A stretch of DNA of 33,836 bases from Chloroflexia bacterium (GTDB lineage Bacteria; Chloroflexota; Chloroflexia; QHBQ01; JAICKM01). The notes beneath the pieces are model-generated. The model was not told where the DNA came from, ran no database searches, and saw only the letters and a program-made list of their open reading frames with translations. The stretch lies in the NCBI GenBank assembly GCA_035310405.1, contig DATGEF010000469.1, positions 1 through 33,836 on the forward strand, written 5' to 3'. Positions 2,062 to 28,506 of the stretch are shown here, piece after piece (the first letter of the stretch is position 1; each line of letters opens with the position of its first letter). Position numbers and translations under genes: made by a program.

Positions 2062-2230
2062 CTACAGCTCTAACTGGCCTTGTATTGCCCGCGACCCCAC
2101 CGCCGCCGCCAGCCGTTGGATCTCGGGCCAGTCGGCGACGAGATTGTTGTAGCCCAGCGCGTCCTCGGTCCAGCCGTGGCCGGGCGCGCTCGCGACCTGG
2201 TAGAGCGCGTAGGCGAGGATGCGGGCCTGC
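2062..2230 (-). pseudogene. Orphan 3'-terminal fragment (about 56 codons plus stop) of a second DUF1156 methyltransferase allele
   Basis: The minus-strand reading gives ...ARILAYALYQVASAPGHGWTEDALGYNNLVADWPEIQRLAAAVGSRAIQGQLEL*. The intact gene ends ...ARTLAYALYQVASAPGHGWTEDALGYNNLVADWPEIQRLAAAVPGRPTQLGFGV*. The stop codon is at the same distance (36 nt) from the repeat in both copies. Homology ends abruptly at 2230, and there is no upstream coding continuation; ORF 2062..2478 beyond that point overlaps the KAP gene 3' end and is spurious. Confidence 0.8.
2098..2230. repeat. Direct repeat copy A (133 bp), partner at 4555-4687
   Basis: Hand alignment of 2098-2230 against 4555-4687 gives 7 mismatches in 133 nt, in the same orientation, with an offset of 2457 bp. 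This high-GC segment is embedded between the low-GC 220-aa gene and the KAP gene. Confidence 0.9.
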
Positions 2231-2296
2231 GAGGGTGAAACTGTTCGTCGCTGGCTTGCGCATGGGCACGAGCGGGGCGGGCCGACGGCCGGTGTG

Positions 2297-4501
2297 TTAG
2301 GAGTCACTGGCGATCCTTTCTGTCCCCTGCTCAGAGGCTCCGGGCTCGAAAGGTTCATGCGGATCGATTCCCTGCTGTCTTTTAGCATACCCGATCTCAA
2401 ACTGCCGAATGACCTCCACCTCATTCTCATCAAGTGTTCCATCACTTGTGATTTGCTGCAGGCGAGCGTGGAGCGCATCAGCGTCCAGAAAAGGGGTCAA
2501 GGATTCAAGATCCATACTCTGGCGCACGTGAGTTGTCGCGTCGGTTAGTGAGAGTAATCTTCGTGTGTCCACGAAACAGTCCAAGAAGGCCAGGAGCCTA
2601 TGAACATCTTCAGTACTCGATTGGACCCAGTGTCGAACTGGTTGTTCGCCAACGTGCTCCCGCCAAAACCGGAGCGTTCGTCCCAAATTGGGAGACTCCA
2701 GCAGATACCCACCCTGCGCGGCATCCTGGATTCTCGCTACAACAAGCCTGTCTAACTCTTCCCACTCCGCGAGGGTAATGAGTGGTTCTGGTGCTACGGT
2801 GCCACCGTATTTACCATGCTCCGCACCGAGTGCCTCCGCGAGTTGCACTATTGTCGCGATGGCCGGGCTTTGCTCCATGGCGCCGTTTAACACTGTGACC
2901 CGGCTTGGTAGCGGAAGCCTATCCAGGAGGCCAGTCACCACCCTGTACAGTATGGTATTAAGCGACAAACTACGCACCCCCGCCCCCTTATCAGATAGGA
3001 GGAGTTGGTCACCGACCTGTAGCAACGCCGTGACAATTATTGCGGTGTTCTCATGTGGGATGTGCTGCTCGACGTAATCCCCAACGTAAGACAAGAAGAT
3101 GCGAAGGCGAGTCGTACCGTCGACCCCCTGCTGCTTGCCGAGTTCCAGGAGTTTTGCACTCAACTGATCTGTGTTGTTGGCCAATGCCAGTATGGCGCGC
3201 ATTTCCATGTTTGAAATGCTATCGCTCGGAACCGCCATACGAAAATAGATCTCAAATTTGCTCCGGCTGGCGACACGTAGTTCTCGCCTCCATCGGTGTT
3301 CCCATTCTGATCCGTAGTGTGTGTTTGTCCAGACAGCATCAAGTTTCGGGAAAAGGTTCCGCAACAGGCGTTGCAGCGCCTTCGGGTCCGCCACCTGTGC
3401 CTCACTAATCAGGGTGTCATAGAATTCGCGCTGAGTAGAGAGGTCAGGCGTACTGCGACTGCCTGAGTAGGAGTTGGGAGCAGTGCCAGCAAACATATCA
3501 GGATGCTGCCGAATTGCATCGTAGACAGTGGGGCAAAAGAGACGCAGACTCTCAATTGCGACAAAGTCTATGGGGTTGACTTCCGCATGGACGACTGGAT
3601 AGGTGAAAGCTAAGGCGTTCATGAGACGCGCCACGTCCCTGGGAGTCTTCAAGAACTTAGTGATGGGCGGGAACGTTAGATTCCAGCGCCCTTGATCGAG
3701 GAGATCAGGGGAAATGTCCCCTAATAATTCCGTCAAATGCTCTGCACACAGGCGACCAAGCTGCTCCTGACCCAGGCTGGGTAGTTGGATAGGCACCTGA
3801 ATAATCTTATCCAGATAGTCAGCTCCACGCGCTCCTTGCAGTCCACCGAGTGCCTCGGTTACAACGTCGCGGTCGAACGCTAACAGGTAGACCACATTGG
3901 GGAAATTTGCAACGGCTTTGACTAAGCGAAATAACTGACGAATTTCATCAGATGTTAATCGATCAATATCATCGATAATTACAAGTATTCGCTTGTTACT
4001 AAGCCTAAGAGTTGCAGAGATCTGCTCTTTGAGAGCAGATACATCGCCTCGTTCGCGCTTCGACAAACGCGCTACTAGCTTTGGGAACCAAGCTACTGAT
4101 TCCGGTAGAGGCGCATCCGATACAACATCAGCGAACTGCCCGAGCCTATCGAGAAACTCCTTCCCTACACTTTTCCATTTGCGTGCGAGAGTTGATTTGA
4201 GTTGACTGAAAAAACTCCTCGTTAGGTCTTCTTGTCCCGAGAACCACCACGGATTGAATCGAACGATTACTGGCTGATTCTCGTCCGTCTCTTGCTGCAG
4301 GTACTGTTCTACAAACTCCAATAGCGTTGACTTACCCGCGCCCCAAGAACCATAGATCGCTATGACGAGGCCATGTGGGGGCGTCTGCTTCGTGATACTC
4401 TGTGCCAGCTTCTGTGCGTAGGGGGCATAGCCAAGGCGGTCCTTTTTAGGATCGGTCAGAGGTTGATCTGCAGACCATTGGCTATTCTGGGGTAATCCCA
4501 T
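2297..4501 (-). CDS. KAP-family P-loop NTPase (734 aa), soluble form without the transmembrane insert
   Basis: The N-terminus is DPKKDRLGYAPYAQKLAQSI...GLVIAIYGSWGAGKSTLLEFV (Walker A, nt 4325-4351). This is followed by VRFNPWWF and then KRILVIIDDIDRLTSDEIRQLFRLVKAV (Walker B). That is the canonical KAP order and spacing. I see no hydrophobic TM segments between Walker A and B. A strong SD (GGGGGAGG) lies upstream of the ATG, 17 bp downstream of the methylase stop. GC is intermediate to low (21/60 at 3961-4020, 33/60 at 2701-2760). Confidence 0.9.
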   Translation of the reverse strand: MGLPQNSQWSADQPLTDPKKDRLGYAPYAQKLAQSITKQTPPHGLVIAIYGSWGAGKSTLLEFVEQYLQQETDENQPVIVRFNPWWFSGQEDLTRSFFSQLKSTLARKWKSVGKEFLDRLGQFADVVSDAPLPESVAWFPKLVARLSKRERGDVSALKEQISATLRLSNKRILVIIDDIDRLTSDEIRQLFRLVKAVANFPNVVYLLAFDRDVVTEALGGLQGARGADYLDKIIQVPIQLPSLGQEQLGRLCAEHLTELLGDISPDLLDQGRWNLTFPPITKFLKTPRDVARLMNALAFTYPVVHAEVNPIDFVAIESLRLFCPTVYDAIRQHPDMFAGTAPNSYSGSRSTPDLSTQREFYDTLISEAQVADPKALQRLLRNLFPKLDAVWTNTHYGSEWEHRWRRELRVASRSKFEIYFRMAVPSDSISNMEMRAILALANNTDQLSAKLLELGKQQGVDGTTRLRIFLSYVGDYVEQHIPHENTAIIVTALLQVGDQLLLSDKGAGVRSLSLNTILYRVVTGLLDRLPLPSRVTVLNGAMEQSPAIATIVQLAEALGAEHGKYGGTVAPEPLITLAEWEELDRLVVARIQDAAQGGYLLESPNLGRTLRFWREHVGEQPVRHWVQSSTEDVHRLLAFLDCFVDTRRLLSLTDATTHVRQSMDLESLTPFLDADALHARLQQITSDGTLDENEVEVIRQFEIGYAKRQQGIDPHEPFEPGASEQGTERIASDS

Positions 4502-4518
4502 GTGACGTCCGCCTCCCC

Positions 4519-7343
4519 CTACACCCCGAACCCCAGCTGCGTCGGCCGCCCCGGCACCGCGGCGGCAAGCCGCTGGATCTCGGGCCAGTCGGCGACGAGG
4601 TTGTTGTAGCCCAGCGCGTCCTCCGTCCAGCCGTGGCCGGGCGCGCTCGCGACCTGGTAGAGCGCGTAGGCGAGGGTGCGGGCCTGCTCGGCGACGCCGC
4701 CGAGGGCCGCGGCCACCGCGGCCGCCGCGGCGTTGCCGCCCTGGCGGTGCGCGGCGACCAGGTGGTGCGTGGCGCTCCAGATGGTGAGCGCGGGCTCGTC
4801 GCGCGGGTCCCAGGCATCCTGGTAAGCGGCCGCGCCGGCCGGGTAGAGCTGCACAAAGCCCCCGCCCTGCTGCAACAGGCCCTCGCGGGCCAGCCGGGTC
4901 AACGAGATATTCGCGCCCTTGCTCATGCTCTCGGCTTCGCCATAGCGCCCGGGTTTCGTGCCGTAGACCTTGTACCAGCGGAGGCAGAACTGCGTGGCCG
5001 GGTCCAGATCGCCTTCCTGCTCGGCGAAGTAGGTCTGGATGACTTCGTTGATCGCGACCAGCGCAGCGCGCAAGGTCATGGGCCGGCCATCCGGCTCCAG
5101 CACTTTAGCATAAGCAGAGAAGACGGCCATGCCGGGCCCGATGGCCGCCTGGTCGAGGTCGACAGGGGCGACGCGGCCACTGGTGAGCACGGTGAGTGCG
5201 GCGGGCAGACTGCTCTTGAGGGCGCGCTGGAACTCGCGGCGGGTACCGAGCGGTGCCTCTGACGGGCGCGGTCGGCAGACAAGCACGATAGAAGAGGCAA
5301 GATTATTGAACCCCTTCTTCAGTGCTGTAAGCATCTCGGTCCGCATTGGCCAGGTGCCAGTGATCTGGAAGCCCGCTTTGAGTAGTGCTTCAAGCATGGT
5401 CTCCCAGCCCGTCGAAATAGCTGCGGGTGCTTTATTTCCACTTTCATCCTCATCACCGGCCTCGGCCTGCTTAAAGGCATAATAGATAGTTAGCGGGTAG
5501 TTGGGGTTTGCCACAGAATACATGCGCTCAAACACTGTCGCCAGGCCTTTCTCGAAGTACTCCTTGGCGGCTTCACTACTTCCCGCAAAACGATACGGCA
5601 TTGCTACGAGTTCTTGTGTCTTAGGAGCTAGTAACGTACTAAACAAACTTGGGTAAATTTTACTAAGAGTACGGCGAAGCCATACATAGAAAAAGTCAGA
5701 CAAATCAGCATAACCAATATTATCGTAATAAGGCGGATCAGTAGAAATGATCATACCATTGCCACTTATGTTCCTAGCATCTAGATTCATGACATGAACA
5801 CGCTGGTCATTTGCGACTTTAGGCAAGCTCGCACTCAGATTCCGTGCGAGGTTTTCGATTATGACCGCCCATGAGCCCGAGCTCTTTCCAGTTGGATTCG
5901 CCTCTGCAAAATTCCACTGCATAGGAATCGCTTGCCGGGCGAACAGATTCCGAGGACATTGTGCAACTGGCTCCCAGGGCGAGAGACTATTATTGAGGTC
6001 CGCTAATTTGTCTAACGCAAATGCCAAATATGTGGAGATAGCATCAGCATAAGCAAGAGCACCGCTGCCTCCGTCGTCGAGACTCTTCCCGTCCTCTGTC
6101 AACCCTGCAGCAACAGCGTCGATCCGTATCTTCTCTCGGGCTTCGCTTATGAGATCACTAAAAGTCGCGAGTCCGACTAACTGTCGATTAGTAAAAAGGT
6201 CACCGACTGTACTCAGTCCATATAGTGGGCACCAGATTGCTCTTCTATCACCAGCAAGTTGCTGTTCAGGCTTCCAATAAGGTTGGGCCTCCCCGGCGAT
6301 CTTGATCTGGTCACTATCAGGCGGCAGATAGATTCGTCCATTCTGGCTATGGGCCGCAATCGCCATTAATTGCATGGCCATCCGGCCTGAAACGCCTTCA
6401 TCCTTGATGTGCTGCTCGGGCGCAATCGTCCCGCAGGCTAAACAGCGGAATATCGAGCCGCGTCCGACTTTCGTGGGATCTGGCGATGCATCACTGCCGG
6501 ACTTGATGCTGAAGGTTACGACAGCAGGTCGCTGAGAATGGTCCACATTAGGCTCGGCCCATACCTTCGTTCCCGGCTTAGCAGACAACACAAACGAACG
6601 GATGAGTGGCATCTGCGCCCCACATGCCGGGTTAGGGCATTTGACCGTTCGCGCCCATAACCAAGCGATGATTGGGGCTTTAGTAATCCCGTACTCTTTG
6701 GGCAATTTCACCATGGGATAGAGATGCCCAAGCCGTTCTTCCGCCTGGTCACGAATCCATTGTCCGTAGTACGACAGATCCTCGATTAGCCCAGAAGCCC
6801 CGGCCCATGTACTTACACGCGCACCGCCCCTGTGGGTTTTCGGATTAACTGGAGCAGACCCTCCGAATCGCAGCGGGATTTCAACGATGGCCTTTGTAAT
6901 CAGAACTGATACAGGATTGAGATCACTTGCATAAACCTCTAGGCCGAGGCGCAAAGCTTCCAGAGGAATCGCACCGCTCCCGGCGAAAGGATCGAGCATC
7001 GGCGGGGGGTTTCCGTTTGTACATCTGTCTATCTCGATCCGTGCCTGTCGAAGGACTTGTGAGTCGTTGATGTTTTCCCACTTTACCAGCGATTCGATGA
7101 GGCGAAAGAGGCGAAGGCGTTCTGCGTTTTGAGTCTCCTCATCAGGAAACTCATCAGGGTGGCTAGAGGGATCATCCACTAGTGACGCAAAGAGGACCGC
7201 TCTACAAGTTGCGAGCGGGCGGCGCGCCCACCATGGATGGAGCGTAGCAGGATGCCCATGACGTATCGTCTTTTCCCGGGCCGAGGCGGCGTTGATGGCC
7301 TCCAGGGGCAGGGCGACTTCGATCAGCTTCCTGCGCGGCGCGG

Positions 7344-7347
<4 letters not shown>
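4519..7347 (-). CDS. DUF1156-type DNA methyltransferase (N6-adenine/N4-cytosine class, DPPY motif, Zn-ribbon), 942 aa
   Basis: The N-terminus KLIEVALPLEAINAASAREKTIRHGHPATLHPWWARRPLATCRAVLFASL is the DUF1156 signature. An AdoMet-binding-like LDPFAGSGAIPLEALRLG follows. Cys pairs CPNPAC...CLAC form a Zn-ribbon. The catalytic motif is STDPPYYDNIGYADLSDFFYVWLRR (DPPY at nt 5728-5739). The ATG overlaps the helicase stop by 4 nt (ATGA at 7344-7347). Confidence 0.92.
4555..4687. repeat. Direct repeat copy B (133 bp), inside the 3' end of the intact methyltransferase gene
   Basis: See copy A at 2098-2230. Confidence 0.9.
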
Positions 7348-10958
<3,611 letters not shown>

Positions 10959-11096: not shown

Positions 11097-11319
11097 GAGC
11101 GGACCGATCGTGCCGAGCACGCGGCGCAGAAGGGGATGCGCCGTTATTCGGACTGTGGGAGAGGGCTCGGCCCTCGAAATACTCGCCTCATGACCCGGCG
11201 TAGGATCGGGGCCCACCCACGCGGCCAGAGCGTCGAGGGCCGAGCCCTCTCCCACAGCCGCGTCAGGCGCGGGTAGTGCCCATCACCGACGCCCCGTTGC
11301 ACACACGATCGGTCCGCTC
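11097..11319. repeat. Nested perfect inverted repeats in non-coding DNA (outer 16 bp, inner 25 bp)
   Basis: The outer arms are GAGCGGACCGATCGTG (11097-11112) and CACGATCGGTCCGCTC (11304-11319). The inner arms are CTGTGGGAGAGGGCTCGGCCCTCGA (11153-11177) and its exact reverse complement (11233-11257). Each inner arm also contains its own GAGGGC/GCCCTC palindrome. Confidence 0.85.
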
Positions 11320-11531: not shown

Positions 11532-11563
11532 GGCAGAGCAACTGACTCTTAATCAGTGGGTTC
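11532..11563 (+). other. 32-nt partial copy of tRNA-Lys (D-arm 3' half, anticodon arm, variable loop), inverted relative to the intact gene
   Basis: GGCAGAGCAACTGACTCTTAATCAGTGGGTTC on the + strand is identical to the reverse complement of 11657-11688, which lies inside the tRNA gene. Similarity stops on both sides. Confidence 0.9.
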
Positions 11564-11629
11564 TCGGTGGGGTGAAAAGATCGCTACTTTTCCGTCAAAA
11601 TAGGCCTGACATAAGCCTAAAATAGGGAT

Positions 11630-11705
<76 letters not shown>

Positions 11706-14334: not shown

Positions 14335-15156
14335 ATGAAACAGGTTAACTGCCAAGACGTTGAACCCTTGATCCCGGCGACCGCCGCCGGGGCCCTGGAT
14401 GAGGACGAAGCCCAGGCGATTCGCGCTCACCTGGCGATCTGTCCGCCCTGTGTGAAGCATTACCACGACTTCCAGCAGACCGTGGAGCAACTGGCGTATG
14501 CTGTCCCCCAGGTCCCGCCGCCCGCCGCCCTACGCGTCAAGATCCTGCAAGTGGTCACGACGACCGCGCAGCCGGCCCCCGCCCAGGTGCCGTCCCTGAT
14601 GCCGCTGAATGGGGCCCGCCCCGCTGGACGGGCCCGCCCGGATCGCCCCCAGCGCCCCCTCGCCACACTCTACCAGCAATTCGCCCCGGCCACGCTGGCC
14701 GCCTGCCTCCTCTTACTGATCGGCGCGGGGATCTGGATCGGGGTCCTCTCGGAACGGATGACCATGATGGAGCGGGGAGTGGCCCAGCAGCAGGCGGTGC
14801 GGGACCTGTTACACCAGCCGGGCGCGGAAATGGCGGCGCTCAAGCCGACCGCGTCCACGATTCCGGCCGGCGGCCAGGTGATCATGGCGCCCGGGCATCG
14901 CCAGGTGGCCGTGATGGCCGTACATCTGCCCCCGCCCGCGAATGGCCGGACCTACCAGCTCTGGATGCTCCAGCATGGCAACCAGCAGCCGGTGCCGGCC
15001 GGCCTGCTCTATGTCGACGGCGACGGCACCGTCATGACGATGGTCGACACGCCGTCCGACCCCGGGGCCATGGCCGGCGTGCGCATCACTGACGAGCCGT
15101 CGGCCGGCAGCCGGACGCCGACCGGCACGAACTGGCTGGAGGCCTGGTACCGCTGA
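14335..15156 (+). CDS. Anti-sigma factor (N-terminal zf-HC2, single TM, RskA-like extracytoplasmic domain)
   Basis: MKQVNCQDVEPLIPA...AIRAHLAICPPCVKHY carries the H-x3-C-x2-C motif. The TM segment is LAACLLLLIGAGIWIGVL. The C-terminal GRTYQLWML...PAGLLYVDGDG...ITDEPSAG is typical of RskA-like domains. I chose the ATG at 14335, which has a GAAGGA SD, rather than the track start at 14308. Confidence 0.85.
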   Translation: MKQVNCQDVEPLIPATAAGALDEDEAQAIRAHLAICPPCVKHYHDFQQTVEQLAYAVPQVPPPAALRVKILQVVTTTAQPAPAQVPSLMPLNGARPAGRARPDRPQRPLATLYQQFAPATLAACLLLLIGAGIWIGVLSERMTMMERGVAQQQAVRDLLHQPGAEMAALKPTASTIPAGGQVIMAPGHRQVAVMAVHLPPPANGRTYQLWMLQHGNQQPVPAGLLYVDGDGTVMTMVDTPSDPGAMAGVRITDEPSAGSRTPTGTNWLEAWYR

Positions 15157-15163
15157 GCGCCAG

Positions 15164-15190
15164 TGCGGAGTGCGGAGTGCGGAGTGCGGA
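15164..15190. repeat. Heptamer tandem repeat (TGCGGAG), about 3.9 copies
   Basis: The units are at 15164-15170, 15171-15177 and 15178-15184, with a partial unit at 15185-15190. The repeat lies in the convergent intergenic region just after the anti-sigma stop codon. Confidence 0.9.
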
Positions 15191-15213
15191 ATAGGCACGA
15201 CGGGAGATCGGAC

Positions 15214-15240
15214 GGGGCGCCAGGGGCGCCCCTTTTGATT
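15214..15240 (+). terminator. Rho-independent terminator between convergent genes
   Basis: GGGGCGCC (15214-15221), an AGG loop, GGCGCCCC (15225-15232), then TTTTGATT. Confidence 0.7.
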
Positions 15241-15248
15241 TCCTAAGC

Positions 15249-17417
15249 TTAACGGTTATGCAATCCACCCTCAGATTCGGGCGGTGGGGCGCAGCACATC
15301 GAGAGATAGCCGATCTTGGCGATCTGGCCGCGGGTGGCGTTGTTGTACGGGCGGAAGTAGGGGCGGCTGTGGCTGTCGCAGGGCTCGCCGATCCCCCCAC
15401 AGCTATAGCCCGAGATGATGCCGTGGTAGTAGGCCGTCTCCACGAAGGGGTAGAAGGCCGTGTTCGGCACGACGTCGGCGAAGCTGCCGAGCGGCGGGTT
15501 GACGACTCTCCAGCCCGCGGCCCCCACAGCGATCTTGCTCAGCTGGCCGCGCGTCACCTGGGTGTACGGGCGGAAGTAGGGCCGGTTGCGGCTATCGCAG
15601 GGCTCGTTTGGCTCCCCGCAGGTGTAGCCCGAGACGATATTGGCGGCAACTGCGGTCTCGATCACGCTGAAGAACGGGAAGGTCGGCGGCACGTCGGCGA
15701 AGGTGTAGCCCCCGCCGACCGGCGTGCTGACAACTTTCTGGAAGCCGAGCACGACGATCTTGACCATCTGGGCGCGCGTGGTGTTGTTGTAGGGGCGGAA
15801 GCTGAAAGTGCCGTCGCCATTGCGGTAGCCACTGATTACCCCATGACAGGCCAGATACAGCACCGGCCCATAGAAATAGTCCGTGGCCTGCACATCGACG
15901 AAGCTCAGCGGGCAGGGTGTAGGGCTCGGCCCGGCCGTGTTGGTCGGCGCGGTGGTGCGCGTGGCGCTGATCGGCGGCACGGGCGTAGTCGTCGCCGTGT
16001 TGGTCGACGGCACGGGCGTAGTCGTCGCCGTGTTGGTTGATGTATTCGTGTTTGTTGGCGTATCCGTTGGCGTAGGCGTTGGCGTGTTAGTGTTGGTTGG
16101 TGTATTCGTGGCTGTTGGCGTATTTGTGGAGGTCGGGCTGGGCGTGCCGCAGGGATCGGCATAATGTGCTACTAGCGTTTGGGAGTAGCCGCCGGCGCTG
16201 TAGTCGCCGACGCCCCAGATATTGTTAGCAGTTACCACCGCCACTCCCCGGAAAGCACTAAAGTTCCCCAGGTTGGGACTGGGCACAACCGTCCAACTGC
16301 TACCATCCCAGTGCTCGCTCAGTGTTTGGAATACTAAATTACCAACATAGGAGTAACCCAGAGCCCAAACGTCATTGGTTGTTACCGGCCCCACACTATA
16401 GAAGCGATTGCCAATTCCTGGATTAGGGCTGGACACCACGGCCCAACTCGTGCCGTTCCAGTGCTTGGTCAGCGCCTGGCTTTGGTTACCGAAGTTGCCG
16501 TTGTCTCCGACGGCCCAGACGTCGTCGGTCGCCACTACCGCCACGCTGTTCAACCCATCGTTGCCGATATTGATGCTAGGGCTGGGCACCACGGCCCAGC
16601 TCATACCGTTCCAGTGTAAGGTTAGCGTACCCCCGGCGCCCCCAACAGCCCAAACATCAGTAGCCGTTACTGCTGCAACTCCGTAGAGAAAGTTATTTCC
16701 TGCGCCAACGTTAGGACTGGGCACCACTGTCCAACTCGTACCATCCCAGTGTTCCACCAACGTTTGGGGCGCCAAGTTGCCATTTTCGTAATAGCCCACG
16801 GCCCAAATGTCAGTAGTTGCCACTGCAGCCACTCCATAGAGAGCGTTGCTGTTTGTTCCTGGATTGGGGCTGGAAACAACCGTCCAACTCGTCCCGTCCC
16901 AGTGCTCGGCTAATGTGCGGAACACAAAGTTACCGATATCGTAGTAACCAACGGCCCAGATATCATCGGCACTTTTGGCCGCCACTCCCGTGAGGATACC
17001 GAGATGGGGGCTGGGCACGACGCGCCATTGCGCGCCGTCCCAATGCTCCACCAGCGTCTGGTCTCCATTGCCATTATAGTAGTATCCGACAGCCCAAATA
17101 TCGTCGACGGCCACCACTGCCGCACCATTGAGGTAGTTGCCGGCCCCGCCAGCGTTAGGGCTGGCGACTACCCGCCAGGCCAAACCACAGGGCGGGATCG
17201 CGGTGGGGGTGGCGGTCGGTATGCTGGTGGCTGTGTTGGTGGCCGACCCGGGCGTCCTGGTGGCCGTGGCCGTGATTATCACGGCGGCATTGAGCTGGGC
17301 ACCCGTGCCGGGCGCGGGGAGCGCCGCGCGTGCCGGGCCGGCGAACGCTGGTCCGAGGCTCAGCAGCAGGAAGAGAGTGAGCAGTGCCCCTTGGTGGAGG
17401 TAATGAGGACGCATCAT
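15249..17417 (-). CDS. Secreted surface protein: signal peptide, seven roughly 45-aa propeller-like repeats, Thr/Pro linker and three C-terminal SLH domains
   Basis: The signal-like N-terminus is [20 protein letters not shown] repeat of the form D(I/V)WAVGYY...QTLVEHWDG(T/S)SWTVVPSPN occurs seven times. The linker is [30 protein letters not shown]. The three SLH-like units begin [52 protein letters not shown] and [27 protein letters not shown] 33-bp tandem duplication at 15976-16041 encodes [11 protein letters not shown] twice. Confidence 0.85.
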
Positions 17418-17441
17418 AGGGGAGACTCCAGGCCGTGCGCG

Positions 17442-19460
17442 TTATTCGATGGTGAACACGGTGGCCTCGCCGCCGTTGAGGGTGACGACGACCTGGCCGT
17501 CGGTGGCCGCGAAGGTGCTCAGGGCCGGCAGGTTGTTGTCGAAGTGCTGGGTGACCCGATGAGTAGCGCGCCAGGTGACCGGGCCGATGTTGACGCTGGC
17601 GGTCAGCGGCTCGGCGGCGTTGGCATTGACCACCAGCAGCAGGCCGCGCGTGCCCGTCCAGTAGAAGTAGGCAAACGCCTCGTGGTGTTTCAGCGAGTAG
17701 AAGTGGAAGAATTGGGGGCTCAGCAGATCCGCGTAGGTCCGCCGCAGGGCGCCCGCTGCCTGGAGCACGGGCACCAGGTCGTCCCGTCCGTTCCAGTGCA
17801 GGCCGCAGATGTCGAAAAAGGCGAGCTTGCCGTAGAAGGGGTCGCCCGGATCGAGCGCGTAGCGCGAGCCTTCCGGGTGATCGAGGCCGAGGTTCATCGG
17901 CTGGCGCTCGTAGATCTCCTGGCCGGCGTTGATGTAGGGCAGGGTATTGACCAGGAAATAGTTCATGATGCTATAGGCCCGGGCCAGTTGTGATCCGCCC
18001 GGCCGCATGACGGCGCGGGGCGAATCGGCGATCTCCGCGGCGGCCAGGATCGGCAGCACCAGGCGTGGCGCGTCCCACTCCACCAACCCCCAGAAGAGCC
18101 CCTGCTGGACCTGGTGCTCGGTCTGCCAGCTGTTGCCCAGGAAGGCATGATAGCCCGCCGCCTTGCTCTTGCGGTCGTTGGCCATCGCCAGCTCCTCGGC
18201 CAGGAAGGCAAACGCGGGGTCGGTGGCCGTCGCCGTGGCGATGATCCGGCGCTCCAGGCCCTTCGGCAAGGCGTGTCCCATATCCAGGCGGGCGCCGTCG
18301 ATGCCGTAGGTGCGCTGCCAGTGGGGGATGATGTTCAGGATAAACTCCCAGAGGCCGGCGTTCGGTTGCGTCCCGGGGAAGACGCTCGACTTGGCCACGT
18401 CGAACAGCATGTAGGGGGCTTGGGCGGCCGCGGCGGGCAGATATGCCTGCGACTCCGCCGGGTGGTCCATATAGAGGCGGAGGAAGGTCACGTCGTCCCA
18501 GGGCGGTTGGGTGTCGTTGATCCAGTCGCTGAACGCGGGCGGCGTGATGACCCCGAACTGCCGGGCGATCTGCTCCAGCACATCGGGGTCCTGGCCGTGG
18601 GCGGCGACGAATGGGGGCCAGGCCGCCGGATGCGTGGTCTGCGGGTCGGGCGCGAAGCGGGCGAGATGGGCCTGCACGGCAGGCTGCGCGTAGATCTGGC
18701 CCAGCGTCGCGCTGCGCGGCTGCTCGAAGCCGAGCCCGGCCACCGGCGGCGGGCCGAAGCTTGGCAGCTCCGCGGCCTTGATCCAGTAGAACCAGTCCGG
18801 GTGCTGCAAGAGCAGGTCGTTGTCCCGCGACGCGGTGCGCGGGATAAAGTCGAGCATCACGCGCAGGCCCAGGATGTGGCAGGCTTCGACCAGGGCCGCG
18901 AACTCGTCGCCCGCGGTCGCCGCCGTGCCCAGCAGGCTGTCGTGGTAGCTGGGCTCGACGTCGGTGAAGCTCTTGACGCTGTAGGGGCTGCCGACCTCGC
19001 CTTTGCGGTAGACATTACTGTATTTGGTCACCGGCAGCAGGTAGAGCGTGTCCACCCCGAACGATTGGATCTGGGGCAGGTAGGCAATGAGCTTGAGGAA
19101 AGTCCCGGTTTCCGTATAGGCGCCCCCGCTCCCGGCCGGGGCGATCTGGCCATCCAGGTCATGGTCGTAGGCGGTCGCCGAGCGGACGAAGGCGCCATAG
19201 ACCACCGCTTTGCTCAGCCACTCGGCATCGTTCTCGCCGCGCAGCGTCGCCAGCGAGCGGCCGTAGTCGGTGCGGGCCTCGGCGCGGGCGAGAATGCCGG
19301 CGAGCGCCTGCGCATAATAGGCGTAGGGATCGACCTGGATAATGCCGCGCTGCTCCGCCCGGGGGCCGACATAGCCGGCGGCCCACCGCGGCGGGATGGC
19401 GTAATCCGGCGACACGGGGCCATGGTGGGCCAAATAGTCATGCAATTGCGTTAGTTTCAC
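17442..19460 (-). CDS. Alpha-amylase-family (GH13-like) glycoside hydrolase
   Basis: Conserved-region-like motifs are GVDTLYLLPV, LRVMLDFIPRTAS, GIDGARLDMGHALP and FAFLAEELA. It has a GTG start with an AGGAGA SD 9 nt upstream. Confidence 0.75.
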   Translation of the reverse strand: MKLTQLHDYLAHHGPVSPDYAIPPRWAAGYVGPRAEQRGIIQVDPYAYYAQALAGILARAEARTDYGRSLATLRGENDAEWLSKAVVYGAFVRSATAYDHDLDGQIAPAGSGGAYTETGTFLKLIAYLPQIQSFGVDTLYLLPVTKYSNVYRKGEVGSPYSVKSFTDVEPSYHDSLLGTAATAGDEFAALVEACHILGLRVMLDFIPRTASRDNDLLLQHPDWFYWIKAAELPSFGPPPVAGLGFEQPRSATLGQIYAQPAVQAHLARFAPDPQTTHPAAWPPFVAAHGQDPDVLEQIARQFGVITPPAFSDWINDTQPPWDDVTFLRLYMDHPAESQAYLPAAAAQAPYMLFDVAKSSVFPGTQPNAGLWEFILNIIPHWQRTYGIDGARLDMGHALPKGLERRIIATATATDPAFAFLAEELAMANDRKSKAAGYHAFLGNSWQTEHQVQQGLFWGLVEWDAPRLVLPILAAAEIADSPRAVMRPGGSQLARAYSIMNYFLVNTLPYINAGQEIYERQPMNLGLDHPEGSRYALDPGDPFYGKLAFFDICGLHWNGRDDLVPVLQAAGALRRTYADLLSPQFFHFYSLKHHEAFAYFYWTGTRGLLLVVNANAAEPLTASVNIGPVTWRATHRVTQHFDNNLPALSTFAATDGQVVVTLNGGEATVFTIE

Positions 19461-25979: not shown

Positions 25980-26960
25980 TCATTCGCCGCGGCGGCGATA
26001 CGGGACCTGCAGGAGCCCGGCCGCTTTGCGCTTGGCGGCTTCGGGCCGGCGATCGTAGCGGGCCGTGGTCTGGACATTGGCATGGCCGGCGAGCTTGGCC
26101 ACGGTGGCGATATCGGCGCCGGCATCCAGCAGATCGCTGACAAAGGTGCGGCGCATGTCGTGCGGCGAGAAGTGGGTCAGGCCGGCCTGCTTGCCGCGCT
26201 TATTCAGGATGTTATAGACGGCCTGGGCGGTGAGGTGGCGGGGCAAGCACTTGCCGGTTTTGGTGATCGGCCAGAACAGCGCCCCCGCGCCGTCCCCGCG
26301 GATGGCCAGCCAGTCGGCGAGGGCGCCGGCGGCGCCGCCGAGCACATACACCGCGCGTTCTTTGCCCCCTTTGCCGCGGACCACCAGGCGATCGGTGGCC
26401 GGATCATAGTCGGCGTAGGCCAGGCCGGCGGCTTCCTCGCGCCGCAGGCCCGCGGTGTAGAGCAAGCTGATCAGCGCGGCGTCGCGGGCGCCGGCGGGGG
26501 TCTTGTCGGCGGCACAGATGCGGAGTAAGGCATCCAGCTCGGCCGACTCCAGTTCGCGCCCGGCGGGCAGCGTCGTGCCTTTGACGACCGGCAGATCGGC
26601 GGCCCGGGCGTATTCTTCGGCGCTCATCTGCTCCAGGCGCCAGGCCATCTTCAGGGTGCCGCGCAGGGCAGACAGCATTTTATTGGCCGTCGCCGGCTTA
26701 TAGGCGTCCGCGACCAGGGCGCGGATGGCCATGGTATGCTGAAAGCGCAACGCCCCCCAGGGACAGGTCAGCGCGATCGCCTTGCCGTCGGTCAGCAGCC
26801 CAGCGATCACGTTCAGGGCCTGGTGCATCGTGCGGCGGCCGCTCGGCTTCAAGTGCGCCAGGTAGACCGCCGCCGGGTTCTGGTCCTGGGCCGGGTAGAC
26901 GCGCGGCGCCAAAGCCGCGTCGGAGCGGGTAGTCGTCAGCGCCACAGCGGGATCGGGCAT
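25980..26960 (-). CDS. Tyrosine site-specific recombinase (phage integrase/Xer family), 326 aa
   Basis: The catalytic-domain motifs are ARDAALISLLYTAGLRREE (Arg I), HFSPHDMRRTFVS (H-x-x-R) and LAGHANVQTTARYDRR (His, Tyr nucleophile). I placed the start at MPDPAVALTT (ATG 26960, GGAG SD). The track's 518-aa version adds an implausible Arg/Ser/Thr-rich extension that runs across the divergent promoter region. Confidence 0.88.
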   Translation of the reverse strand: MPDPAVALTTTRSDAALAPRVYPAQDQNPAAVYLAHLKPSGRRTMHQALNVIAGLLTDGKAIALTCPWGALRFQHTMAIRALVADAYKPATANKMLSALRGTLKMAWRLEQMSAEEYARAADLPVVKGTTLPAGRELESAELDALLRICAADKTPAGARDAALISLLYTAGLRREEAAGLAYADYDPATDRLVVRGKGGKERAVYVLGGAAGALADWLAIRGDGAGALFWPITKTGKCLPRHLTAQAVYNILNKRGKQAGLTHFSPHDMRRTFVSDLLDAGADIATVAKLAGHANVQTTARYDRRPEAAKRKAAGLLQVPYRRRGE

Positions 26961-27021
26961 CGTGGGGCTCCAATCGGTGCGGGATGCACGGCCATCCCGG
27001 TAAACACGATTCTCATAATTT

Positions 27022-27030
27022 ATTGTAGCA
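27022..27030 (-). promoter_or_regulatory. Putative extended -10 element (TGCTACAAT) upstream of the recombinase gene
   Basis: The minus strand reads GTGCTACAATAA, 62 nt upstream of the ATG at 26960, in a locally AT-rich stretch. Confidence 0.45.
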
Positions 27031-27088
27031 CACACGGGGCGGCACCGCAATTGCCGCCGCGCCGCTTTCACTCTGCGGGGCGATCCTC

Positions 27089-27094
27089 TATAAT
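27089..27094 (+). promoter_or_regulatory. Putative -10 box (TATAAT) for the SpoIIE-family phosphatase gene
   Basis: A perfect TATAAT lies 21 nt upstream of the GTG at 27115 and 39 nt upstream of the ATG at 27133. The -35 match is weak. Confidence 0.4.
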
Positions 27095-27114
27095 TGGCCG
27101 GTGGTGCGAGGTAA

Positions 27115-28506
27115 GTGAGGGCGCGAGGACGTATGCGGGAATGGTTGTCGCGGTGCCCCGTGACCGACGCCGAACAGGTTCGGAAGTGGCGCGTGCTCAA
27201 CGTGCTGCTCTTGAGTTTTGCCGGCGTGCTGGTCGTCAACGGGACGTTCAGCTTTCTGTTCAATACCCTGCAGCAAGGGCTGACGAATCTGGTCACCCTG
27301 GGGCTGATCGCCGGGCTATACCTGGTCAACCACCGCGGCCAGGTCACGGTGGCGACCTGGGGACTCGTGGCCAGCGCGATGGCCTTCGTCCTGGCGAGCG
27401 CGATCGACCCCGGCCAGGGGCTGATGAGCGCCGTGATCAGCCCGACCGCCTTCGTGGTGCCCATCGCGGTGGCCGGGGTGTTGATCTCCTGGCGGGTGGT
27501 GCCGGCCATCACGCTGTTGGCCAGCGGAGTGACCATCTGGCTTTACCTGGATGGCTTGCCGCAGCTGGCCGGCTACCGGGGGCCTCATTACGACGATATC
27601 CTGGCCATGGTCTTCGGCCTGGTGCTGGTTTTCGTCGCCACCGCGGCCGCGTCCTGGCTCTCCAGCCGGCTGATCTTCGAGGCGCTGGGGGATCTGCGGG
27701 CGCGCAACGTCGAGCTCGTGCTGGCGAATCGGGCGCTGGCGGAGCAGGAGCGATTCCGCAGTGAGCTGGAAATCGCGCGCACGATCCAGCGGGACCTGTT
27801 GCCCGCGCACCTGCCGATCTTGCCCGGCCTGGAGCTGGCGGCGGAGTGCCGGCCGGCGCTGGAGACCAGCGGCGATAGTTATGACGTGCTCGTCGGCGAC
27901 GACGGCATCCTCCACCTGGTCGTCTCCGATGCCTGTGGCAAGAGCGTGCCTGCCGCCCTGTTGATCGCCCTCAGCCGCAACAGTCTGCGCGCCGCGCTGC
28001 TACGCACCGGCTCGCCCGCCGCGGCGCTGACCGAGACGAACCGCGCCCTGACCCCCGATCTGCGCCGCCACCAGTTTGTGGCTATCAGCTGCCTGGCACT
28101 CGATCCCCGCACCGGGCGGCTCCGGCTGGCCAATGCGGGGCAGGTCTATCCCGCGCTGGCGCGGCCCGGCTCGCTGGGCGCGCCGGCCACCTGCACCTTC
28201 CTGGAAACGACGGGTCCGCGCTTGCCGGCCGGCCTGCTGGCCGGCCTGGTCTACCAGGAAACGGTGCTGGCCCTGGAGCCCGGCGACTTGCTGGTCGCCT
28301 GTAGCGATGGGCTGATCGAGGCTCTGGCCGGGACGGGGGAGCCCTTCGGCTTCGAGCGGTTAGCGGCGCTGCTCGCGACGGCCGCGGCCGCCGGGGCCAG
28401 CGCGGCCGCGACGCTGGCGCAGGTGCTGGATGCCGTGAGCGCCTGGGCCGATCCGGCCCAACCGCAGGACGACATCACGGTGGTCGTCGTCCGCCGGCGG
28501 CCCTGA
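27115..28506 (+). CDS. Membrane-bound PP2C-type (SpoIIE/RsbU family) serine phosphatase
   Basis: The N-terminal half has several hydrophobic helices (VLNVLLLSFAGVLVVNG, LVTLGLIAGLYLV, AFVVPIAVAGVLISW, MVFGLVLVFVATAAASWL). The C-terminal half reads ELEIARTIQRDLLP...SGDSYDVLV...LHLVVSDACGKSVPAALL...ACSDGLIEA...QDDITVVVVRR, which is the SpoIIE domain signature. The start could be the GTG at 27115 or the ATG at 27133. Confidence 0.85.
   Translation: MRARGRMREWLSRCPVTDAEQVRKWRVLNVLLLSFAGVLVVNGTFSFLFNTLQQGLTNLVTLGLIAGLYLVNHRGQVTVATWGLVASAMAFVLASAIDPGQGLMSAVISPTAFVVPIAVAGVLISWRVVPAITLLASGVTIWLYLDGLPQLAGYRGPHYDDILAMVFGLVLVFVATAAASWLSSRLIFEALGDLRARNVELVLANRALAEQERFRSELEIARTIQRDLLPAHLPILPGLELAAECRPALETSGDSYDVLVGDDGILHLVVSDACGKSVPAALLIALSRNSLRAALLRTGSPAAALTETNRALTPDLRRHQFVAISCLALDPRTGRLRLANAGQVYPALARPGSLGAPATCTFLETTGPRLPAGLLAGLVYQETVLALEPGDLLVACSDGLIEALAGTGEPFGFERLAALLATAAAAGASAAATLAQVLDAVSAWADPAQPQDDITVVVVRRRP

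Follow-up and report, generated by a model that had tools for sequence, protein, structure and literature searches.

Introduction

Defence genes are often nested inside other defence operons. Many BREX, DISARM and Type I restriction-modification systems and most Hma systems contain them, and beyond the idea of a 'genomic sink' the route by which they arrive is open (10.1101/2024.01.29.577857). In the preprint of Payne et al. 2024, 62.7% of Hma systems have embedded genes, 96.7% of which are co-oriented with the operon; for the origin of embedding this preprint offers only the 'genomic sink' idea and mentions neither recombination nor duplication (10.1101/2024.01.29.577857). Described here is a predicted anti-phage Hma operon in a stretch of 33,836 nucleotides (nt) from a Chloroflexia bacterium (GenBank assembly GCA_035310405.1, contig DATGEF010000469.1, positions 1 to 33,836; hereafter the window). 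Its slot between the methylase gene hmaB and the ATPase gene hmaC holds two embedded genes, a KAP-family NTPase gene (KAP) and a gene for a protein of 220 amino acids (aa; X220), with an orphan 3' end of hmaB between them. The KAP gene is thereby bracketed by two copies of the hmaB end, and we lean towards reading this repeat as a recombination scar, left by gene-end displacement through additive recombination with one homologous crossover and one illegitimate join.

Scars of this kind have been described elsewhere. In rhs, contact-dependent inhibition (CDI) and type VI secretion system (T6SS) effector-immunity loci, C-terminal displacement occurs and strings of orphan 3' ends accumulate (PMC5361080, PMC3967940); displacement and orphan modules are also the subject of Jackson 2009 and Poole 2011, as cited in PMC5361080. 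[quoted passage not shown] For transformable bacteria, homology-facilitated illegitimate recombination is credited to de Vries and Wackernagel 2002, Prudhomme 2002 and Meier and Wackernagel 2003 (as cited in PMC5361080), and it is also known from E. coli conjugation (PMC3240628).

The window locus has the layout of the embedded Hma systems of the preprint, hmaA-hmaB-cargo-hmaC with the cargo on the same strand, and goes beyond them in that it and seven other events carry physical scars of insertion. With the rhs, CDI and T6SS loci it shares the order of intact gene, acquired DNA and stranded 3' fragment of another allele, as well as a sharp homology breakpoint and the proposed combination of a homologous anchor with an illegitimate join. 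As in rhs, an identity of about 95% between main gene and orphan permits deletion or fusion, although over 133 nt instead of the 522 bp of Salmonella rhs. Unlike in those loci, where a variable toxin domain is displaced, the displaced piece here is a conserved end with an 11-residue variable tail; KAP, an entire gene of its own, forms the payload, a helicase-methylase-ATPase defence operon serves as the host locus, and 5' ends and gene junctions are displaced in addition to 3' ends. The hmaB orphan has no functional module, and re-activating it would therefore gain nothing except loss of the cargo. As in homology-facilitated illegitimate recombination, a one-sided anchor and a non-homologous join, here proposed, would explain additive capture beside a conserved gene; the classic events usually delete recipient DNA, whereas here 60-170 nt are duplicated.

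Two other kinds of arrangement resemble the locus in part. Islands of the tRNA, tmRNA and dusA type integrate into gene ends, bring a replacement end, encode an integrase and use a short, fixed attachment (att) core. The locus is like them in having an intact target gene and a displaced copy of its end as a direct repeat at the far side of the insert, but no integrase and no fixed att core are found at the KAP unit. The hsdS shufflons of Type I restriction-modification systems contain silent or inverted partial copies of the specificity gene. Here, too, partial gene copies that can serve as recombination substrates lie near a methylase gene; the orphan, however, has no alternative specificity domain and no adjacent recombinase, and since it is a direct repeat, recombination would delete and not invert.

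The duplicated end of hmaB

A repeat search of the first 12 kb of the window found one outstanding direct repeat, 2062-2230 versus 4519-4687 (169 nt, 86% identical). In BLAST, its core aligns 2098-2230 with 4555-4687 at 126 of 133 positions (94.7%), with 7 mismatches, no gaps and an E-value of about 2e-54. The original prediction, made from the letters of the sequence alone, had given the same core with 7 mismatches in 133 nt at an offset of 2457; the searches reproduce these figures, and the similarity is significant in a proper alignment. The spacing of 2457 nt equals 3 × 819, that is, 819 codons. The copy at 4519-4687 (copy B) had been taken for the real 3' end of the methylase gene, correctly: it closes hmaB itself, an open reading frame (ORF) for 942 aa at 4519-7347, which the PADLOC HmaB profile matches with 1058 bits. 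The other copy (copy A) is the in-frame orphan that it had been said to be. It matches only positions 915-966 of the 967 positions of the PADLOC HmaB model, the last 52, and scores 41 bits against a hidden Markov model of the HmaB C-terminus; it keeps the hmaB frame, and its stop codon lies 36 nt past the core, in the same position as in hmaB. It has neither an hmaB start codon nor upstream hmaB sequence. At the protein level the two copies differ in one core residue and then in the entire 11-residue tail (GSRAIQGQLEL in copy A, PGRPTQLGFGV in copy B).

Upstream of 2230 the similarity to hmaB falls to background (26/70 identical), and the hmaB allele of the closest related locus (L083) still matches copy B across that upstream stretch (62/70); the breakpoint at 2230/2231 is therefore sharp and belongs to copy A. 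Read in gene orientation, the copies are identical at 110 of the first 113 nt, at 15 of the next 19 nt and at 19 of the 36 nt of the tail. The step from the first 113 nt (97%) to the last 55 nt (34/55, 62%) is highly significant (Fisher p = 2.8e-9), and both tails align to the C-terminus of the HmaB family, so the two tails come from different hmaB alleles. A simple duplication in place is no explanation for this mosaic of near-identical core and divergent tails. Over the first 113 nt L083 diverges by about 15% from each of the two copies, its protein being nearly the same; the cores of copies A and B therefore share recent ancestry or were homogenised, and the tails stem from different alleles.

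The copies share perfect blocks of up to 51 nt, and a perfect match of about 25-50 nt is enough for RecA-dependent exchange, at low frequency. When hmaB down to position 4688 is fused in silico to copy A, an uninterrupted ORF of 942 codons with the alternative tail results. By this geometry, recombination between the copies would delete KAP and the spacer precisely and in frame, leaving an intact hmaB with the other tail, as the original prediction had it; the geometry bears this out, while no excision product was found in the sequence collections searched. The orphan is not expected to act as a gene, and its consequence is structural.

The embedded genes and related loci

Gene identities were established by profile searches against Pfam and PADLOC, and composition is given as G+C at the third codon position (GC3; Table 1). 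The KAP protein matches Pfam PF07693 (KAP_NTPase) at 1.5e-60 over 292 of 293 model positions and PADLOC PifA at 2e-115 over residues 7-697, which is close to its full length; from these matches it is a predicted PifA-like defence protein (abortive infection). For X220 the searches of Pfam and PADLOC gave no family match. Its family numbers more than 150 proteins with 40-55% identity, encoded by stand-alone hypothetical genes across very diverse bacteria, and X220 is a candidate defence gene because of its position inside the Hma operon. The homologues of X220 stand alone in unrelated neighbourhoods and are not paired with KAP, which rules out the idea that X220 and KAP form a two-gene system split by the orphan.

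The G+C content is 0.53 in KAP and a very low 0.41 in X220. The GC3 values point to two separate foreign cargo genes, unlike each other, amid host-like hma sequence. Both copies of the hmaB end are host-like in composition, so the donor must itself be a high-GC Hma locus. The methylase gene, too, is a mosaic, its GC3 dropping from 0.72 at the 5' end to 0.51 in the centre (5320-7197) and climbing to 0.88 at the 3' end, and HmaB is 30-55% identical to that of L083 in the centre and 80-98% identical in the last 250 aa. This suggests that the centre of hmaB, possibly specificity-determining, was swapped in from a lower-GC donor.

In L083, the closest related locus (hmaC 86.8% identical at the nucleotide level, with similarity starting 2 nt before the ATG), the slot holds a single, different cargo gene (625 aa, GmrSD_N, HEC-05-like) and no orphan. 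Between window and L083, DNA similarity is lost at the hmaB stop codon and returns 2 nt ahead of the hmaC ATG, as one expects of a slot that is exchanged through homologous recombination in the flanking genes. A comparison of related loci with and without the KAP unit, as originally proposed, has in this way located where similarity stops and returns and found other cargo in the slot; a locus without cargo (empty site) was not found. By its C-terminus HmaB has only two close relatives, L083 (85% aa identity) and L169 (71%), neither of which has KAP, X220 or an orphan. Among 185,579 species representatives the nearest hmaB is 53% identical.

Taken with the preceding results, the window has what marks a displacement scar: an intact gene with, downstream of it, a fragment that is homologous to its 3' end and to no other part, an orphan derived from an allele other than the resident end, and intervening DNA that is horizontally acquired (GC3 of KAP 0.55 versus 0.88-0.94 in the flanks; different cargo in the slot of L083).

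No mobile element was recognised at the KAP unit. The 2.4-kb unit has only the KAP ORF between the repeats, with no integrase, transposase or recombinase domain in Pfam or PADLOC searches; there are no terminal inverted repeats at 2231-2296 and 4502-4518, and inverted repeats, promoters and terminators around the unit are not above chance. Transposase target-site duplications are far shorter than 133-169 nt, and with a duplication of that length, no terminal inverted repeats and no transposase the unit does not have the features of a transposon or insertion sequence. As to an integron gene cassette, a search made with no attC-specific model gave neither an imperfect inverted repeat that could form a hairpin downstream of KAP nor an integrase next to it. 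The site-specific mobility that the first wording, 'cassette-style', suggests is not borne out, as neither integrase nor terminal inverted repeats nor fixed breakpoints were found.

Other assemblies of the locus

The duplication would be spurious if the contig were a chimera of two strain variants of the locus, but this is very improbable. A contig from ENA (L002), produced by an independent pipeline, is 99.99% identical to the window (1 mismatch in 9135 nt) and spans both copies and all junctions. In JGI sample 3300027857 the locus lies on two contigs, L171 ending at window position 2268 and L170 starting at 2258. This break inside the 66-nt spacer could be taken as a sign of misassembly, as could the fact that L002 and L170 both end at one point in hmaC, 11 nt beyond the window start, which points to strain heterogeneity or low coverage. 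However, the break is a 9-nt gap (2259-2267) outside the repeat; L171 holds the KAP stop and 29 nt of the same spacer, and L170 runs through copy A, X220 and hmaC and itself holds the breakpoint, with 28 nt of spacer and then copy A. Those 28 nt are not hmaB-like, and copy A is therefore not simply the end of another full-length allele. The longest perfect block of 51 nt is too short to confuse an assembly at k = 141, and a repeat-induced misjoin would collapse the copies rather than create two. The gap in the spacer and the shared contig end in hmaC hint at low coverage or strain heterogeneity at the edges of a variable region.

Survey of other hmaB loci

Direct repeats and extra HmaB ends were sought in 160 further hmaB loci, of which 80 came from species-representative genomes and 80 from metagenomes; candidates were checked at the protein level and the bracketed genes were annotated. 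Cargo bracketed by a duplicated hma gene end was found in 8/160 loci, representing seven further events (Table 1). The repeats flanking hmaB in L054 were not counted as an event, and a 76-nt repeat in L041 was excluded as a REP-like (repetitive extragenic palindromic) intergenic element. The duplicated lengths (60-170 nt) and the breakpoints differ in every event, and no conserved short att core is shared by independent insertions, the eight events varying in gene, end, length and breakpoint. The hmaC 3' orphan of L056 differs in its final three codons and has its own stop at the same position, a displacement at the outer end of the operon. In the population that comprises L106, L130 and L131, a 13-nt polymorphic patch occurs in copy 1, in copy 2 or in neither; such a moving patch is consistent with exchange or gene conversion between the copies.

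About 95% of the loci in the survey, L083 among them, carry their cargo with no orphan scar. Additive displacement is at most a minority route, and most loci are accounted for by simple replacement between arms in hmaB and hmaC. The search for duplicated methylase ends beside cargo, suggested at the outset, was thus positive, but the wider suggestion that this is how Hma operons accumulate embedded genes could hold at most for the loci in which duplicated gene ends bracket cargo.

Tandem pairs of full-length hmaB genes with conserved ends and divergent centres occur in 2/160 loci (L067 and L092); as in the comparison of the window with L083, it is the ends that are shared and not the centres. 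In L135 a PifA-like KAP NTPase (14881-17070), 38% identical to that of the window, lies 25 nt after hmaC; KAP genes are therefore associated with Hma loci more than once and at different positions.

A different arrangement was seen in L082 (1791-16180), an Hma locus in a metagenome-assembled genome of Gemmatimonadota (OZ241352.1). It has a second, inverted hmaB copy at 5465-8032 (minus strand, 855 aa), with a neighbouring pair of tyrosine recombinase genes (8049-8936 and 8940-9824), between hmaA and hmaB; its inverted repeats measure about 1.06 kb (84%) and 0.85 kb (80%). This shufflon-like layout resembles that of a methylase inverted by a recombinase and can be compared with phase-variable Type I hsdS loci.

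Origin of the repeat

Gene-end displacement would have begun with DNA from a related high-G+C Hma locus that integrated additively, by a homologous crossover inside a conserved hma gene and an illegitimate join now visible at 2230/2231. This join would have fallen slightly inside the resident gene end; the intact end of the donor would then have taken over, and the resident end would have been stranded beyond the new cargo. The outcome would be a second cargo stacked in the hmaB-hmaC slot, the resident cargo not being replaced, and 56 codons of one hmaB allele stranded between the cargos. Two polarities are conceivable. The hmaB 3' end and KAP could have entered from the hmaB side, the displaced resident hmaB end staying beside X220; or the orphan and X220 could have entered from the hmaC side and come to lie beyond a resident KAP, 66 nt downstream of it. 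Gene conversion could later have homogenised the copies over their first 113 nt, or this stretch could contain the homologous crossover itself. This reading is built on the two-allele tails, the sharp breakpoint, the in-frame geometry, the foreign cargo, the exchange of the slot, the recurrence with variable breakpoints and the lack of an integrase, a transposase or terminal inverted repeats; the recombination pathway, and homogenisation or crossover in the 113 nt, are what we infer from them. Short orphans would predominate if long ones delete their cargo quickly.

Several observations weigh against displacement. The two polarities are mirror images of equal cost and fit equally well, so that the incoming gene may be KAP or X220, and the donor must be a high-GC Hma locus that already carried compositionally foreign cargo, which is an extra assumption. 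In the sequence collections searched there was no donor locus, empty site, deletion variant, circular junction or excision product, and a single close relative of the locus. The best database match of KAP in a protein search is 45% identical, the exact protein occurring only on contigs of this locus, and that of X220 is 55% identical. The 66-nt spacer is without a source, having no significant match in the window, in 162 loci or in the cargo-hmaC junction of L083. The three assemblies may stem from related samples or from the same sample. The centre of hmaB (GC3 0.51) resembles KAP (0.55) in composition, yet a host-like hmaB 3' part of 800 nt intervenes; the low-GC centre and KAP may conceivably have arrived together, and the history of the locus may be more complex than a single event. 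The host is uncultured and may or may not be competent. Measurements have found homology-facilitated illegitimate recombination to be rare (PMC5361080).

As an alternative, in line with the original prediction, the unit of hmaB 3' end, KAP, 66-nt spacer and orphan could have pre-existed in a donor as a RecA-dependent cassette and entered by homologous events only, either by two crossovers within hmaB with the orphan as right-hand arm or by Campbell-style integration of a circle carrying one repeat copy. The breakpoint at 2230/2231 would then be older than the locus, and the unit would be able to hop among related Hma loci. The identity step about 113 nt into the repeat does look like a crossover point within it; host-like hmaB ends around a foreign KAP fit shuttling among high-GC Hma loci, and the junction duplication of about 94 nt in L106, L130 and L131 has single-crossover geometry, with patches that move between copies. 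We nevertheless judge this explanation rather unlikely. No cargo with the same arms was found in two Hma backgrounds, the eight events differing in cargo, arm length and breakpoint; neither a circular junction nor a deletion variant was seen; it is not evident how a non-replicating circle would pass from cell to cell; and the initial duplication would still require an illegitimate event. It is an equally tentative idea that stranded hma ends serve as portable homology arms and make embedded defence genes into cassettes dependent on host recombination. Were it true, two crossovers in one gene could place a copy of a unit of gene end, cargo and orphan end in any related Hma operon, independently of the downstream sequence and with precise excision possible; cargo could be gained and lost in defence operons without an integrase, and the stacking of cargo would be accounted for.

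The orphan could also be the last 169 nt of a second, downstream hmaB, the rest of which was erased by insertion of KAP or by deletion. The distinct allele of the orphan tail and the full-length pairs of L067 and L092 agree with such a tandem origin, which we consider improbable: such pairs occur rarely, the identity of their shared ends reaches at best 82-88% (L067; lower in L092) versus 97% here, two separate illegitimate joins would be required, and the other orphans (5' stubs, 20-57 codons) are located as displaced ends and not as decayed paralogues. A site-specific element, with the copies as attL and attR, the hmaB 3' end as target, a replacement end brought along and the recombinase supplied in trans, is largely refuted, and we give it hardly any credence. 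Its architecture, with the target end restored and the displaced end at the far side, would resemble that of islands at tRNA or dusA genes, and the window does encode a 518-aa tyrosine recombinase (Phage_integrase) at 25980-27536, about 15 kb from the Hma operon and 21 kb from the KAP unit. Against this, the 2.4-kb unit contains only KAP and has no terminal inverted repeats, and the repeat is long, coding and mosaic instead of a short identical core; the duplicated segments elsewhere vary in gene, end and length, so there is no specific att site.

Gene-end displacement thus remains our preferred reading, with limits on what was first proposed. That prediction held that the locus once had a different methylase allele and that KAP entered together with a new hmaB 3' end. 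The origin of the orphan tail from another allele is upheld by the identity step, but KAP as the incomer is not, since entry of X220 fits equally. The interpretation was reasonable, although over-specific on the incoming gene and on being the mechanism of embedding. It had also been thought undescribed, which is true of the Hma preprint (10.1101/2024.01.29.577857), where a recombination mechanism is not mentioned, and not of the principle, which is known from rhs, CDI and T6SS loci (PMC5361080, PMC3967940). The finding is modestly new: it places a recombination scar of a known kind in a new setting and is not a new mechanism.

The window and the seven comparable events are physical evidence that conserved ends of hma genes act as recombination substrates. 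They imply that cargo can be added beside existing cargo, besides being swapped, and that each addition leaves a direct repeat which makes the new gene precisely deletable. The question of embedding becomes testable through orphans, breakpoints and deletion rates across embedded systems.

Features of the locus

The features of the window and the events found in the survey are listed in Table 1. All genes of the locus are on the minus strand, along which the order is hmaA, hmaB, KAP, 66-nt spacer, orphan hmaB 3' end, X220, hmaC. The helicase, methylase and ATPase genes of the PADLOC definition of Hma are present once each on this one strand, from which the locus is predicted to be an Hma operon. 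The hmaA product has Pfam matches to Helicase_C, SNF2-rel_dom, ResIII and NOV_C, and the hmaA stop and hmaB start overlap by 4 nt.

Table 1. Features of the Hma locus in the window and cargo bracketed by duplicated hma gene ends in other loci.
Sequence	Feature	Coordinates	Strand	GC3	Remarks
Window	hmaA, SNF2/DEAD helicase with NOV_C, 1204 aa	7344-10958	-	0.94	PADLOC HmaA 1348 bits
Window	hmaB, DUF1156 N6-adenine methylase, 942 aa	4519-7347	-	0.88 (3' part)	PADLOC HmaB, residues 5-937; Pfam DUF1156
Window	Repeat copy B, functional last 56 codons of hmaB	4519-4687	-		Core 4555-4687; tail and stop 4519-4554
Window	hmaB-KAP spacer, 17 nt	4502-4518	-		GGAGG ribosome-binding site, from sequence
Window	KAP, embedded KAP-family P-loop NTPase (PifA-like), 734 aa	2297-4501	-	0.55	Pfam KAP_NTPase, PADLOC PifA
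Window	Spacer between KAP stop and orphan, 66 nt	2231-2296			71% GC; left edge is the breakpoint 2230/2231
Window	Repeat copy A, orphan hmaB 3' end, 56 codons and stop	2062-2230	-	0.89	Core 2098-2230; PADLOC HmaB positions 915-966
Window	Orphan-X220 spacer, 47 nt
Window	X220, second embedded gene, 220 aa	1352-2014	-	0.38	No Pfam or PADLOC match
Window	X220-hmaC spacer, 26 nt
Window	hmaC, DUF499 AAA+ ATPase, first 441 codons	1-1325	-	0.94	Truncated by window start; ATG at 1325; PADLOC HmaC 598 bits
L036	hmaB 5' stub, 27 codons				Cargo: GmrSD-like gene and others
L056	hmaB 5' stub, 57 codons				Cargo: ABC-ATPase
L092	hmaB 5' stub, 81 nt at 94%				Cargo: caspase-like gene; upstream helicase DpdF-like, not HmaA
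L112	hmaB 5' stub, about 130 nt				Cargo: Schlafen/AlbA_2 gene and ParA-like gene
L135	hmaB 5' stub, 34 codons				Cargo: two small ORFs
L106, L130, L131 (one population)	hmaB-stop/hmaC-start junction duplicated, about 94 nt	L106: 9444-10330; L130: 3612-4502; L131: 3604-4490			Cargo: nucleotidyltransferase ORF and partner
L056	hmaC 3' end, 115 nt at 98%, 1.3 kb downstream	16103-17544			Cargo: two small ORFs (193 and 140 aa)

Public gene calls cover hmaB only for its last 360 of 942 codons (4519-5601), leaving about 1.7 kb uncalled, and include a 98-aa 'gene' (2062-2358) which is the orphan read through from within the 3' end of KAP. Both are probably gene-calling artefacts caused by the shift in composition; they illustrate how orphan ends come to be called as small hypothetical genes and how a mosaic hmaB is called only in part. 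The database records have no entry for the exact hmaB sequence or for a 218-aa form of X220.

Upstream of the operon, about 670 nt from hmaA, lies a tRNA-Lys(CTT) gene at 11630-11705 on the minus strand. A 37-nt inverted partial copy of it, 95% complementary, is found at 11532-11568, perhaps what is left of an island boundary or att site. An additional 40-nt inverted repeat is present at 11153-11257.

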